Positions 13,836 through 30,043 are shown, numbered from the stretch's first letter. The stretch: 41,441 bases of DNA from a virus (IMGVR_UViG_2541047739_000012), one strand, 5' to 3'. Notes: generated by a model not told the origin, from the letters alone. Numbers and translations: made by a program.

Positions 13836-13858
13836 CGAAAAAAACCGCCGAAGCGGTT
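13836..13858 (-). terminator. intrinsic terminator-like hairpin between G-T and H
   Basis: Minus strand: stem AACCGC / GCGGTT with CGAA-type tetraloop, followed by TTTTTTT and then the H RBS and start. Confidence 0.55.
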
Positions 13859-13866
13859 ATGTTGAC

Positions 13867-14178
13867 TCACTGAGACACTATTAAAAGCGCGTTTTCCAGT
13901 CCGGCAAATGGATCTGAGACGCCTTCTGTCTGCTCTTGTTCCCACTGAAGAAGCGCATCATTCAGTGGGACTTTGACACCCTGCGCACCGTAAACCGCAG
14001 AAACTATCTGGGCAGCCCGGATATCAGCCCGCTCGTCACCCAGCGGGCTGAACCTGTCAAATTCTGCCCACATCATGATTTCTGATGCGGACATTTCCCG
14101 GCGTAACTCTGACAATGTGCGCCCCATCCTGAGCGCCAGCATCATCAGAAAACGCATCCCCGGAAGCTCTACTTTTTT
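13867..14178 (-). CDS. T: tail assembly chaperone G-T, -1 frame (T) segment of the frameshift product
   Basis: -1 frame ORF (MRFLMM...) with no independent RBS; it is open back to the slippery run A AAA AAG (minus strand, 14172-14178) at the end of G. A -1 slip there joins ...GEVKK to KVELPGMRFLMM... Confidence 0.6.
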   Translation of the reverse strand, partial: KKVELPGMRFLMMLALRMGRTLSELRREMSASEIMMWAEFDRFSPLGDERADIRAAQIVSAVYGAQGVKVPLNDALLQWEQEQTEGVSDPFAGLENALLIVSQ

Positions 14179-14555
14179 TTAACCTCGCCGGCATCACTGA
14201 TCAGTTCCAGAGACTGCCGAAGAAGCCGCGCATGCACCGGGCCATACACGGCAATCACCTGTTCACGATCATCCTCTGAAAATACAGGTTGCAGTCCGGT
14301 ATCACACAGAACATCAATGAACAGTTCAACATCTGCCTCCAGATTTCGGCGGGCGCGCTCCGCAACGGATAACGGTGTCTCATCATCTTTTGCTTTAACG
14401 ATCTCCTGCCAGCGCAACCAGGCTTCTGCAGAAGGTTCCCGTAATACAACCGTTGCCCCTTCCCATTCAGGCACATCAACAGTTTTATGGCGAAACCCCG
14501 ACATCGTTGCCAGTGCCAGATTGCGGATATTTTTAGTCATCACATCTATCCTCAT
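14169..14555 (-). CDS. G: tail assembly chaperone G
   Basis: 128-aa ORF ending ...GEVKKK-TAG across an A8G slippery run; position between V and H. Start is ATG 14553-14555 (overlapping the V stop) or ATG 14538-14540 (better SD GAGGAT). Confidence 0.7.
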   Translation of the reverse strand: MRIDVMTKNIRNLALATMSGFRHKTVDVPEWEGATVVLREPSAEAWLRWQEIVKAKDDETPLSVAERARRNLEADVELFIDVLCDTGLQPVFSEDDREQVIAVYGPVHARLLRQSLELISDAGEVKKK

Positions 14556-15259
14556 TAACTGACGGTAACAGTGCAGGAAGTGGAGGTCACCTTGTTAACA
14601 GGGCTTGCTGAATCAGAAATCTCGCAGGTATACGCACCGGCATCACCTGATGCTGCTGATGCCTTACTGAATGTTGCCGCCGTCTGTCCGGAAACAGGAG
14701 AACTACCTTTCTTCCAGACATAAGAATAAGGCGGCACACCACCGGCAGCCTCAACCACCATTTCGAGTTTCGCTCCGGCAGAAACCTGCAGCGTGCTGTT
14801 TAAATCGACCTTCACTTTCAGCGGCTCTGTCGTCAGCACAGGTTTACCTTTCAGGCGCAGGGAAAACGTTGCAGCCACAACACCATTAGTTCCTGCAGAC
14901 CAGGTATGCTGACGCACCTCTGCCATAAAGGTAAATCCGTTGCCTGACGGAAAAATAACTTTAAAGCCATACGTGGTGTCATTGTCATAGGCACTGCGCA
15001 ACGCGTTCTGGGCAGCATTGAGGTAAAAGTTGCCTGACATGGAAATCTCTGACGCGGCACCAAGGCCGTTAATATTTTCCTGCTCAACAGAACACAGCGT
15101 GGTGACATCAATATCCTGCTTTTGTCCTGCGGTAAACTGCACCTCTTTGATTGTACAGCTCAGGCCAAGATAGCTGGCAGAATCCAGGGTTTCTGCTGTT
15201 ACCGGTGCAGACGAAATCATAATTTTCGTCAGTTGCGAACGCTCAAAATTAGAGGACAT
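14555..15259 (-). CDS. V: major tail protein V (with C-terminal Ig-like domain)
   Basis: ORF track 14555..15310; ATG at 15257-15259 (MSSNFERSQL...) preceded by a strong AGGAGA SD; C-terminal region resembles a Big_2/Ig-like domain as in lambda V. Confidence 0.8.
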   Translation of the reverse strand: MSSNFERSQLTKIMISSAPVTAETLDSASYLGLSCTIKEVQFTAGQKQDIDVTTLCSVEQENINGLGAASEISMSGNFYLNAAQNALRSAYDNDTTYGFKVIFPSGNGFTFMAEVRQHTWSAGTNGVVAATFSLRLKGKPVLTTEPLKVKVDLNSTLQVSAGAKLEMVVEAAGGVPPYSYVWKKGSSPVSGQTAATFSKASAASGDAGAYTCEISDSASPVNKVTSTSCTVTVS

Positions 15260-15270
15260 ACTCGTCTCCT

Positions 15271-15298
15271 GAAAATAAAAAACCCGCCAGCGGCGGGT
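15271..15298 (-). terminator. intrinsic terminator-like hairpin immediately upstream of V
   Basis: Minus strand: stem ACCCGCC / GGCGGGT with 3-nt loop, followed by TTTTTTATTTTC and then the V RBS. Confidence 0.55.
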
Positions 15299-15318
15299 GG
15301 GTAAAATCATTAACGACC

Positions 15319-27875: not shown

Positions 27876-28931
27876 TCATGCTTTCCACTTCAGGACACCC
27901 GAATTTCTCGCGTGCATTAAAAAACGAATCAGCAACAACAGCTGGCTGCCGTGTTTTTCTTCAAAATCTTTTACCCCGGCGTGCAGTTCGTTATGACATT
28001 TACGGCACAGCGGAATAACAAACAAATCATCAGCCTTTGTTCCCATCCCTCCCAGTCCATGACCAATGATGTGATGCGGATCATCTGCCTGATTGCCACA
28101 CGTCATGCATTTCTGCGTTTTTACCCAACGCGTGTATACAGGCATCTCTTCCCGTTGTGATTTCTGGCGCTGGAGATACTGAGCCGGTGACTCCGGATCA
28201 ACGGCAATGCTGACCACCGTCTTTTCCTGTGGCGGGTTTTGCTGGTGGGCGTGAGGCAGCGGCGCAAGATTTTTTGTGCGCTGCTTCAGTATGCTGGCGG
28301 CGGTCTGCTCTCCCGGTACGATGTCGCTTTCACGGTACATTGAGCGGATTTTTTCCGCACGCAACCCCAGCGAACGACGTAATACCGCTTCCGGTAGCGC
28401 GTCCGCCACCTGATTGCGGACCGCCCACCAGGATAATTCAGCCAGAGATAATTCACGCTCCTGCGTACCGCTTATTGCGTGACCGATGACGTCAATCATC
28501 CATGCTGACAGGTTTTGATGAGCAAGTTGCTCGAGTGATTCGGATGTCTGGTCACGCAGCTGGTTGTCGCAGTGCCAGCACAACACCATTGCGCCGGTAC
28601 CATAACGGTGAATAACGGTTTCGCTGTGATGATAATCGCCGTGTGGCCACTGGCAGGATTTAATATGGCGCAACAGCCAGTCAGACAATGCACCAGCACC
28701 ACCAGCAGCACGAATTACCCGTGCGTTACTGAAAAACGGCAGCAATGTTTTGTCTTCCACCAGCGGCTGGCGAACGGCAGGAACGACCCCGGACGGCAGA
28801 TTACGCATGCTTTTCGGTTCCGGCTCCACCAGTACCCGGGTATTGTGAAATACCGGCATGGATTCACGGCCCGGCTTAACGACCACCAGCCCGAGTTCCG
28901 GTACCAGAACAGGTCGAAGTAATACCCGCAC
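27876..28931 (-). CDS. DUF968-like nin-region protein with C-terminal Cys/His motif
   Basis: 351-aa ORF (GTG at 28929-28931; alternative ATG 24 codons in); C-terminal CMTCGNQADDPHHIIGHG...CRKCHNELH resembles an HNH/zinc-binding module; gene order resembles the Qin prophage quuQ-ydfU block. Confidence 0.55.
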   Translation of the reverse strand: MRVLLRPVLVPELGLVVVKPGRESMPVFHNTRVLVEPEPKSMRNLPSGVVPAVRQPLVEDKTLLPFFSNARVIRAAGGAGALSDWLLRHIKSCQWPHGDYHHSETVIHRYGTGAMVLCWHCDNQLRDQTSESLEQLAHQNLSAWMIDVIGHAISGTQERELSLAELSWWAVRNQVADALPEAVLRRSLGLRAEKIRSMYRESDIVPGEQTAASILKQRTKNLAPLPHAHQQNPPQEKTVVSIAVDPESPAQYLQRQKSQREEMPVYTRWVKTQKCMTCGNQADDPHHIIGHGLGGMGTKADDLFVIPLCRKCHNELHAGVKDFEEKHGSQLLLLIRFLMHARNSGVLKWKA

Positions 28932-28932
28932 G

Positions 28933-29211
28933 TTACCTCCAGATGCGTTGCTGGAATGTGCGAGACGGACGCGGTGGGCGTTCAGAGTAAGGAAGCCTGA
29001 CGGAGATTATCCAGTGACGATAATCGAGGCTGAGGGCTTTCTTAATCTCGTATCCGTGTCTGCGGTAGCACTGAATTAGCCACTCGGCCTGCTCTTCAGT
29101 GCATGGGTCATGCTGGAACCAGTCAGATTTGAAAGTGCGGGAACGCCGCCCGTGCCTGCTGGCAAAGACGGCAGAATCATAAGAATTGTGTAATTTGGTA
29201 TCGTGCGCCAT
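28933..29211 (-). CDS. hypothetical nin-region protein
   Basis: ORF track 28933..29292; ATG at 29209-29211 (MAHDTKLHN...) gives 92 aa; stop abuts the next gene's start. Confidence 0.45.
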   Translation of the reverse strand: MAHDTKLHNSYDSAVFASRHGRRSRTFKSDWFQHDPCTEEQAEWLIQCYRRHGYEIKKALSLDYRHWIISVRLPYSERPPRPSRTFQQRIWR

Positions 29212-29283
29212 CGGTTGTCTCTGCTGGCGCAGCAGGTGCCAGTTGTTCAGGCTGGCGTGCGAATTGTAAACCAGAATGCCAGG

Positions 29284-29309
29284 AAAAAACAAAACCCGCC
29301 GAAGCGGGT
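29284..29309 (-). terminator. intrinsic terminator downstream of the lipoprotein gene
   Basis: Minus strand: stem ACCCGC / GCGGGT with TTCG-type tetraloop, followed by TTTTGTTTTTT. Confidence 0.6.
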
Positions 29310-29507
29310 ATGCTAAAACAAACTGAAAGTAATATACCGGACTTGTAAAGGAACGATAGAATAATTATTGGATTAAACCCTGACTCAATCCAGATTTCAT
29401 AGGCAACAACTACGGACTAATCATCACAGTCATGTTTGATAGGCTTAGTCCGCATTGGGTGAGGGTTTACGGCGTTTTCACTAATAATTTATCGTCCAAG
29501 CTATACA

Positions 29508-29900
29508 CTACTGCCCTGTTTTAACGAAGTTTTTAAAGGAAACAACTGCCTGATAGGGGTTTGGTTGACAGCCAAACATATTATCGCAAAAAGGCTTGAT
29601 GAAAATTCTTGAGGATCCATCTTCATTTGGCATTTTACTCACTTGATAAGCGAGGAATGGACTATTTGGAGAGGGATTATAAGTGGAAATTAGCGTGTCT
29701 GTCGCCGTTTGAATTTTCCATGAGGAATTATTAGCCAACCAGAATTGCGCTCGTTTCCAATAAAAGTCACATTGCTTTTCATCATTACATGTTAGTGGCT
29801 TCATTGCTTCTGCTTTCAACGCTGGATCGACCTTTGCTGCACACCCTCCCAACATTACTGTTGCAATCATTACACCTGCGACTAAAACAAGTTTCTTCAT
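29508..29900 (-). CDS. lipoprotein (moron)
   Basis: 130-aa ORF with signal peptide and lipobox (MKKLVLVAGVMIATVMLGGC), several Cys; strong SD GGGAG; bracketed by terminator-like hairpins and AT-rich intergenic DNA. Confidence 0.7.
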   Translation of the reverse strand: MKKLVLVAGVMIATVMLGGCAAKVDPALKAEAMKPLTCNDEKQCDFYWKRAQFWLANNSSWKIQTATDTLISTYNPSPNSPFLAYQVSKMPNEDGSSRIFIKPFCDNMFGCQPNPYQAVVSFKNFVKTGQ

Positions 29901-30043
29901 CTCCCTGCCCCATCAATAAAAGTTCGGTTCTCTAATAACTAGAGTTAATCAACGGAAAAAACGCCGAAGCGGGTTAAGTGCGGGTGCGTTGAGGATGCCT
30001 GACACATCAGAGGTGGCGAGGGATTTCTCCCCCGCCTGGTCTC

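Follow-up and report, generated by a model that had tools for sequence, protein, structure and literature searches.

Why should one small hairpin stand at three distant gene boundaries of a single viral genome? The question is raised by IMGVR_UViG_2541047739_000012, a stretch of 41,441 nucleotides (hereafter the window) that is a lambdoid E. coli prophage, in which a stem-loop with the minus-strand core CCGC-UUCG-GCGG occurs at the loci here called sites 1, 2 and 3 (Table 1). The explanation that we hold with good confidence is a joint one, in which all three motifs would be terminators, sites 2 and 3 would be copies of the terminator of a hok/sok toxin-antitoxin locus, duplicated around an inserted cassette at a recurrent cassette junction, and site 1 would be a separate terminator.

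The 12-mer CCGCCGAAGCGG is found exactly at 13845-13856 and 29296-29307 (two copies, against ~0.005 expected) and with one mismatch at 29961-29972; a scan of the window allowing up to one mismatch returns 4 matches against 0.21 expected, a number that 0 of 100 dinucleotide shuffles reach. The fourth match, CCGACGAAGCGG at 3500-3511, lies within an open reading frame (ORF) of 1138 aa, has no U-tract and does not fold into a hairpin, and was rejected as a chance match. Sites 1, 2 and 3 are all intergenic and share one orientation. The hairpin described in the original prediction is confirmed, with its sequences, its gene-boundary positions and its common orientation, and its matches exceed chance in the window. 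That prediction had read the motif on the plus strand; functionally it reads on the minus strand, with a U-run after the hairpin. Alignment of 141 nt around each site finds identity only in ACC(C)GCTTCGGCG and the T-run, and no homology among the flanks.

Predicted terminators of minus-strand transcripts

The genes neighbouring the three sites are all on the minus strand, as are almost all others in this region of the window, and the plus strand carries no T-run at any of the three sites, so that termination would be unidirectional. On the minus strand, the stems are followed by the U-tracts UUUUUCG (site 1, whose run reaches 7 U if two stem U are included), UUUGUUUUUU (site 2) and UUUUUU (site 3). 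Sites 1 and 2 each have a short loop on a GC-rich stem of 6 bp, above the minimum of about 5 bp for such terminators, and site 3 falls short of this minimum, with a predicted hairpin energy of -3.1 kcal/mol against -11.8 kcal/mol for its intact form.

The sites resemble intrinsic terminators of the C(UUCG)G type in the GC stem, the UUCG loop closed by C-G, the 3' U-tract, the position at gene ends and the orientation; sites 1 and 2 do not differ from this type, whereas site 3 is two stem pairs short and predicted to be weak. Hairpins of this type are reportedly common both in terminators and in the intergenic regions of phages (Tuerk et al. 1988; d'Aubenton Carafa et al. 1990). All three motifs are best read as predicted Rho-independent terminators of minus-strand transcripts of the prophage.

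The hok terminator and the cassettes beside it

The locus that ends in site 3 is a type I toxin-antitoxin system, hok/mok/sok, identified by the mok/hok ORF (30044-30256; Pfam HOK_GEF, E = 3e-23) and by the sok leader (30369-30194, minus strand; Rfam RF01794, 112 bits where the gathering score is 59, E = 6e-25). In the hok architecture, a long-range stem between the tac and fbi elements keeps the full-length mRNA inert (PMC9841398). Here the tac element (30369-30358) forms the mRNA 5' end, and in the minimum free energy fold of the 415-nt transcript 30369-29955, nt 1-12 (GGGUGCUUGAGG) pair with nt 376-388, corresponding to the fbi element at 29994-29982 (CCUCAACGCACCC), which ends 10 nt before the site 3 hairpin. 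The locus is thus of the hok type, combining a Hok/Gef ORF, a sok leader match and a tac/fbi pairing before the terminal hairpin, and the gene is annotated hokD in RefSeq relatives. On the grounds of the sok and HOK_GEF matches and the tac/fbi pairing next to the hairpin, site 3 is the predicted terminator of the hok/sok toxin mRNA. Known hok/sok mRNA 3' ends (PMC9841398) share the sok match, the Hok/Gef ORF, the tac/fbi pairing and the hairpin straight after fbi, but here the terminal hairpin is a crippled hybrid with an intact copy 665 bp further on, and the full-length hok transcript may carry an extra gene. Loci of the hok type are found at 12,238 places in 4939 E. coli genomes.

The relation between the two copies was examined by local BLAST of window positions 28800-30500 against annotated relatives. 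Two of these (L004 and L005) lack the 130-aa ORF that lies between sites 3 and 2 and have a single hairpin, GAAAAAACAAAACCCGCCGAAGCGGGTTACGTGCGGGT, whose low-coordinate flank matches that of site 2 and whose high-coordinate flank matches that of site 3, with the BLAST segments overlapping by 19 nt. Since the single hairpin of these cassette-free relatives joins the site 3 flank to the site 2 flank, sites 2 and 3 are read as two copies of one hok terminator, split by an inserted cassette. In the window, the two copies form an exact direct repeat of 13 nt (minus-strand ACCCGCTTCGGCG, at 29297-29309 and 29962-29974) that are 665 bp apart. Site 2, the downstream copy, has retained the ancestral U-tract and has a flank with 100% identity to the one in empty alleles; the upstream copy, site 3, is a hybrid of ACCCGCUUCGGCG joined to UUUUUUCCGUUGAUU, and the same hybrid is present in 54 of 54 loci with the cassette. 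The GG missing from the upstream copy would be explained either by recombination with a donor terminator of the form AACGCUUCGGCGUU, crossing over within the CGCUUCGGCG core common to both, or by the deletion of 2 nt at a later time.

The inserted cassette is moron-like and looks horizontally acquired, with 39.5% GC against 51.9% in hok and 51.5% in the downstream genes, and contains one good ORF, encoding a predicted lipoprotein that matches phrog_16082 (unknown function) and has no match in Pfam or PADLOC. It lacks terminal inverted repeats longer than 4 nt. No sigma-70-like site was found at 29900-29960 by a crude consensus scan, which a weak promoter could escape, and the only nearby match of the promoter scan (29705-29676) lies inside the lipoprotein ORF. 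The lipoprotein gene is followed after 199 nt by the strong predicted terminator of site 2, yet this terminator copies the resident hok terminator together with its resident flank. Of 5426 complete E. coli genomes, 255 carry the cassette, at 266 places compared with the 12,238 places of hok-type loci, in the invariable order hokD, cassette, 92-aa gene, DUF968, RusA and Q, and it is absent from L004, L005 and 51 IMG/VR loci. These comparisons mark the cassette as a derived insertion of single origin. A protein scan of genome contigs for the lipoprotein found only relatives of ~42% identity, in Pseudomonas.

Some variation within the cassette was also noted. Shorter cassette matches, considered as possible new contexts, were rejected as insertions of the insertion sequence IS1203 or as variants of the 3' untranslated region. 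In two E. coli chromosomes (L010 2604-3817 and L011 2653-3866), IS1203 (IS3 family) separates hokD from the lipoprotein ORF, so that the 5' end of the cassette is truncated or displaced, and the junction after the hairpin core differs slightly (TTTTTTTTCGTTGATT). About 69 nt of the 199-nt 3' untranslated region of the lipoprotein gene (window 29393-29461) are lacking in L008 and in the L009-type loci of 596-bp repeat spacing, suggesting that this stretch is dispensable. GenBank entries contain a plus-strand ‘mobile element protein’ of 37-52 aa over the site 2 hairpin (window ~29203-29340; L001 3204-3317, L004 2204-2338, L005 2216-2338 and L008 2153-2311), which is without support as a gene and is taken as an annotation artefact over the terminator.

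The same slot holds other cassettes. A scan of IMG/VR with a hok-specific 26-mer, combined with the other loci collected, yielded 127 hok-terminator loci, in which the distance was measured from the 26-mer start to a conserved anchor just upstream of the 92-aa gene. The empty allele (51 loci, 93 nt to the anchor) and the rem-type segments (~43 loci, 380-470 nt) have one hairpin copy. Two copies are present in the window-type cassette (665-bp repeat spacing, at least 9 loci) and in alleles with repeat spacings of 840-847 bp (L140 and L137), 1348 bp (L126 and L228) and 1835 bp (five loci: L154; L019, L142, L189 and L037), and a Rosmer-like cassette of ~1.9 kb in a single locus (L201) has one copy. 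Filled alleles have their second copy either at exactly 77 nt before the anchor, a distance shared with the empty allele and with site 2 of the window, or directly before the rem-type flank. The exact repeats outside the window type measure 15-23 nt (e.g. AACCCGCTTCGGCGGGTTTTGTT), and the flanks past the second junction (J2) match those of single-hairpin alleles at 96-100% in the window, L126 and L140 types.

The contents of these cassettes include the Rosmer proteins RmrT (5.5e-93) and RmrA (2e-155) in L154, RmrA (5.5e-102) with a weaker RmrT match in L201, a Fic/DOC protein with a 59-aa partner in L140 and L137, and an M78 (IrrE-like) peptidase with a helix-turn-helix (HTH) protein in L126. 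The sequence after the first junction (J1) differs between cassettes; those of L154, L019 and L201 start with a TTGACA-like sequence right after the hairpin, and that of the window does not. By these comparisons, at least three further cassette types appear to be bracketed by 15-23-nt copies of the hok hairpin, and the hok terminator appears to be a recurrent cassette junction, whose slot behaves as a prophage defence hotspot.

A base rate for the core was obtained from 147 loci chosen by hok-specific or cassette-specific patterns only, with the slot masked and 1.05 Mb remaining. Among the 106 distinct strict terminator-like hairpins outside the slot, none contains CCGCTTCGGCGG and 4 have a CUUCGG loop, placing the upper 95% bound at ~2.8% per terminator for carrying the core. 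At such a base rate, the identical 15-23-mers that end several different cassettes cannot have arisen independently.

Site 1 and the prophage frame

Site 1 lies 8 nt past the stop codon of the T gene, which is also recognized as a PHROG tail protein and annotated in close relatives, and 10 nt before the start of the tape-measure gene. At the equivalent position, phage HK544 carries a depositor-annotated rho-independent terminator. In IMG/VR relatives chosen by the tape-measure start sequence alone, the hairpin is intact in 120 of 120; in 11 of these, divergence from the window starts exactly at the hairpin 5' edge, where 446 bp replaces window 13903-13859. This moron, ending exactly at the hairpin edge, contains an alternative T C-terminus, a TTGACT promoter-like site, a ribosome-binding site and a gene for a 113-aa protein with two transmembrane segments and CxxC motifs. 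The alleles diverging at the hairpin edge make site 1 a cassette boundary too, here with only one copy of the hairpin, and it occupies the same slot as the HK97 gp15 moron, at the tail chaperone / tape-measure junction. An alignment search with the T protein for related loci returned only relatives of 98-100% identity, and gave no information on the diversity of the T/tape-measure junction.

At least 120 IMG/VR contigs carry the exact 17-mer CCGCTTCGGCGGKTTTT, most of them in unrelated flanks. Among the matches listed, 105 occurrences are outside hok, and 76 of these have an ORF of at least 50 aa that starts no more than 70 nt downstream, the encoded proteins falling into 57 clusters. The largest cluster comprises 7 diverged tape-measure proteins with unrelated DNA flanks (two after gpT-like C-termini, one after a lipoprotein moron), and the second contains tailspike or fibre proteins after gpJ-like genes. 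These contexts suggest that the hairpin recurs at module junctions of late operons.

Two further observations concern such positions. In unrelated phages (IMG/VR L013, L022, L028 and L031), an identical hairpin lies between gpJ-like central fibre and tailspike/side-fibre genes, often with ...GCC(T/C)GGAG...ATG within 2-20 nt, so that the terminator abuts the ribosome-binding site of the next gene. In the window, a strong terminator-like hairpin (ACCCGCCGCTGGCGGGT with TTTTTATT; 15282-15298, minus strand) falls in the first codons of the longest ORF for the major tail protein, 14555-15310, and a terminator is annotated in HK544 just before the major tail gene of that phage; the true start of the major tail gene is probably downstream of this hairpin, making it another intra-operon tail terminator.

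Mosaic breakpoints between relatives fall on all three sites: sites 2 and 3 bound a 665-bp indel exactly, and the site 1 allele diverges at the hairpin 5' edge. This bears out the suggestion in the original prediction that the hairpin could mark module junctions. Its description of a ‘reused terminator cassette’ is upheld in part: the sites are stem-loops of the terminator type at gene boundaries, while reuse across all three loci is not supported, site 1 having no demonstrable common origin with sites 2 and 3. Its other suggestion, a small repeated element, does not hold if a mobile repeat is meant, as only 13-23 nt are common, without flank homology or terminal inverted repeats. Unlike repetitive extragenic palindromic (REP) sequences, miniature inverted-repeat transposable elements (MITEs) or IS-like elements, the copies have only the hairpin in common, the longest terminal inverted repeat is 4 nt and the cassettes contain no transposase; unlike an integron, the slot is surrounded by hok, the 92-aa ORF, DUF968, RusA and Q, and the repeat end-points vary between alleles.

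At 96-99% identity, the relatives of the window include vB_EcoM-606R7, Evi and phi467, all of them induced phages of E. coli, and an ExoVIII-like protein is also encoded (Pfam). By the gene layout (Table 1), rightward early transcription occupies the minus strand, passing the replication genes and hok, then the cassette, DUF968, RusA and Q, and the same minus-strand transcription continues through the tRNAs and then the lysis, head and tail genes. The fifth tRNA is probably the attachment-site tRNA at the prophage end.

Table 1. Coordinates of the hairpin sites and of other features of the window.
Feature	Position	Strand	Description
Site 1, predicted terminator	13838-13858	-	AACCGC-UUCG-GCGGUU (13843-13858) and U-run (13838-13842); plus-strand hairpin aaccgccgaagcggtt with A-run at the low-coordinate side; called by terminator scan as AACCGCTTCGGCGGTT + TTTTTCGT; 6-bp stem, -8.5 kcal/mol
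Site 2, predicted terminator	29284-29309	-	ACCCGC-UUCG-GCGGGU (29294-29309) and U-tract (29284-29293); plus-strand hairpin acccgccgaagcgggt with A-run at the low-coordinate side; called by terminator scan as ACCCGCTTCGGCGGGT + TTTGTTTT; 6-bp stem, -10.9 kcal/mol
Site 3, predicted weak terminator of hok	29956-29974	-	Crippled hybrid ACCCGC-UUCG-GCG/UUUUUU; 3-bp stem (29962-29971), U6 (29956-29961); shortened plus-strand hairpin acgccgaagcgggt (29961-29974) with A-run at the low-coordinate side; not called by terminator scan
hok/mok/sok locus, type I toxin-antitoxin	29975-30369	-	Rfam, Pfam, fold
Inserted moron-like cassette	29310-29955	-	One good ORF, deviant GC
Predicted lipoprotein, 130 aa	29508-29900	-	Signal sequence MKKLVLVAGVMIATVMLGGC; only good cassette ORF
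Conserved 92-aa gene	28933-29211	-	phrog_1212; first gene past site 2, followed by DUF968/YdfU, RusA and Q
DUF968/YdfU	27876-28931	-	Pfam
RusA	27498-27875	-	Pfam
Antiterminator Q	27140-27508	-	Pfam
T part of G/GT tail assembly chaperone	13867-14157	-	Pfam Phage_tail_T, E = 3.1e-19; upstream of site 1
Tail length tape-measure protein	10594-13827	-	Annotated as protein H in 97-99% identical relatives; downstream of site 1
Cro	33889-34116	-	Pfam
CI-like repressor	34213-34860	+	Pfam
DicF antisense small RNA	35999-36050	+	Rfam full-length match, 76.7 bits, E = 2.3e-15; leftward early region
Integrase	39383-40408	+	Pfam
Four-tRNA cluster	24953-25259	-	Rfam; between Q and lysis genes
Fifth tRNA	40464-40550	-	Rfam; adjoins integrase gene
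IS009	44-242	-	Rfam full-length match, 218.9 bits; in 194-aa ORF 1-585, tail-fibre end

Proposed working, competing explanations and significance

The proposed working of the locus is as follows. In the lysogen, transcripts from the constitutive hok promoter would leak through the crippled site 3 and end at site 2; this leak would express the lipoprotein, for which the scan found no promoter of its own, and site 2 would insulate DUF968, RusA and Q from hok-promoter transcription. The N and Q systems of lambdoid phages mediate antitermination during lytic growth, and given the Q gene in the window, antiterminated RNA polymerase would be expected to read through all three sites at that stage. 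In the repressed prophage, site 1 would end transcripts from a moron promoter, or spurious ones, before the tape-measure gene, and during lytic growth it may act as a 3' hairpin that stabilises the upstream V-G-T message. The gain, loss and exchange of cassettes would proceed through short-homology recombination within the 13-23-nt hairpin repeat, which is, by analogy, a likely mechanism, with phage Red/RecT-type recombinases or template switching as possible agents and perhaps with circular cassette-plus-hairpin intermediates; the pairing length of Red-beta and the precedent of the promoter-early stem-loops (PeSLs) of T4-type phages, both given below, lend it plausibility.

Several points weigh against the joint explanation of three terminators and a recurrent cassette junction. 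Termination is a prediction at all three sites, and site 3 is too weak for a terminator call, both in the scan and in its energy. Site 1 may or may not share ancestry with the hok terminator, given its differing outer stem (AACCGC, where sites 2 and 3 have ACCCGC) and unshared flanks. No donor context for the cassette was found, a scan with its 5' end giving 54 loci that were all in the hok context, and the second hairpin copy would have been either brought in with the cassette or duplicated from the target. With 13-23 nt, the repeats reach at most the lower edge of the 23-27 bp that form the minimal efficient pairing segment of Red-beta (PMC3945230), and selection could help to cluster breakpoints at terminators, as it would tolerate insertions only where transcripts end. 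The IMG/VR loci are mostly from E. coli isolates and are redundant; L154 and L019 have the same 1835-bp spacing with different junctions, and the independent types could number three, not four. Bracketing is also not universal, the rem-type loci (~43) and L201 having the upstream hairpin only.

A more far-reaching version of the junction, which is possible but which we advance only tentatively, would make the hok hairpin (ACCCGCUUCGGCGGGUUUU) a true recombination linker of ~20 nt, at which cassettes are captured, excised and exchanged, perhaps as circles. The hok terminator would then be a nucleotide-defined defence hotspot, and its crippled upstream copy would couple the captured gene to the constitutive hok promoter. 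The cassettes concerned may be those with Rosmer, Fic/Doc, M78/HTH and the lipoprotein, and by analogy the arrangement may be a temperate counterpart of the PeSLs of T4-type phages.

We consider it unlikely that selection alone accounts for the slot, through random illegitimate insertions whose survivors landed past the hok terminator with a strong terminator of their own, the reasoning being that lethality would follow from read-through into Q or from losing the hok 3' end. Such an account agrees with the definition of morons as extra genes that come with a promoter and a terminator of their own (PMC3594210), with the rem-type and L201 inserts, which occupy the same slot without a second copy, and with the TTGACA-like starts of the L154, L019 and L201 cassettes; it explains the presence of some terminator, but not of an identical 15-23-mer in register with the original U-tract and flank, at a base rate of 0/106.

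Less credible still is pure convergence, by which three unrelated terminators would each have settled on the stable C(UUCG)G loop with a short GC stem. The many contigs that carry the 17-mer in mostly unrelated flanks, the lack of a common flank among the three sites, the differing outer stem of site 1 and the reported abundance of such hairpins between phage genes and in terminators all agree with it, but the pairs of empty and filled alleles pass from one hairpin to two in exact register at sites 2 and 3, and the core is missing from all 106 other terminators of these prophages. The comparison of allele sequences refutes convergence for sites 2 and 3; for site 1 alone, it is a reasonable reading.

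A dedicated site-specific system, with the hairpin as recombination site and circular cassettes (compare integron attC, IS200/IS605 and the group IIC introns, for which intrinsic terminators are known targets, PMC4748821), is very improbable: several unrelated cassettes at one hairpin with direct repeats are what Campbell-type integration of a one-copy circle predicts, but there is no recombinase, transposase or intron in or beside the cassettes, which each hold only one or two accessory genes, terminal inverted repeats are absent, and the varying repeat ends (13-23 nt), with the window crossover inside the stem, fit homology-driven exchange.

Among known systems, the joint explanation places the cassettes near the lambdoid morons, of which HK97 gp15 is the prototype and with which they share presence or absence among close relatives (the 665-bp cassette and the 446-bp site 1 moron), deviant base composition, a position between functional genes and a terminator at the end. 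The window cassette differs in that the scan found no promoter and in that the terminator in the hok slot copies the resident one; TTGAC(A/T) sites are present in the site 1 moron of relatives and in the L154, L019 and L201 cassettes. The nearest precedent is that of the PeSLs of T4-type phages, which combine a promoter with a terminator stem-loop, flank ORFans, mediate indels and give mini-circles (PMC2839356), and their authors explicitly contrast them with lambdoid morons (PMC2839356). In both cases, stem-loop terminators flank ORFan or accessory cassettes in a hyperplastic region, and repeats bound indels, implying recombination (PMC2839356); in the hok slot, the bracketing by exact 13-23-nt repeats is found at no fewer than four spacings (665, 840-847, 1348 and 1835 bp). 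Here, by contrast, the stem-loop and U-tract alone are repeated, without a promoter composite, the setting is a lambdoid prophage of temperate life style, and what is repeated is a toxin-antitoxin mRNA terminator. The defence hotspots of prophages and satellites, such as those of P2 and P4 (PMC9122126), similarly form a fixed slot between conserved genes with alternative accessory or defence systems, but belong to another phage family, the present slot lying between the hok terminator and DUF968-RusA-Q with a boundary at the nucleotide level. Two papers on prophage defence (PMC11364771 and PMC10884400) mention neither a hok slot nor terminator boundaries, and a limited literature search found no description of a cassette junction at the hok terminator.

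As terminators, the three sites are ordinary and of the textbook kind; the moderately interesting part is the cassette-junction role. The comparison with relatives points to a nucleotide-precise junction at which E. coli lambdoid prophages swap accessory and anti-phage defence cassettes, adjoining a toxin-antitoxin locus that is present in most E. coli genomes. The gain of morons by temperate phages has so far been attributed to random illegitimate recombination. If the hairpin does guide exchange, the conserved-linker model, so far confined to the T4-type PeSLs, would extend to temperate phages, the hairpin would provide a simple sequence handle for mining prophage defence hotspots, and a captured gene may borrow the promoter of the resident toxin-antitoxin transcript.

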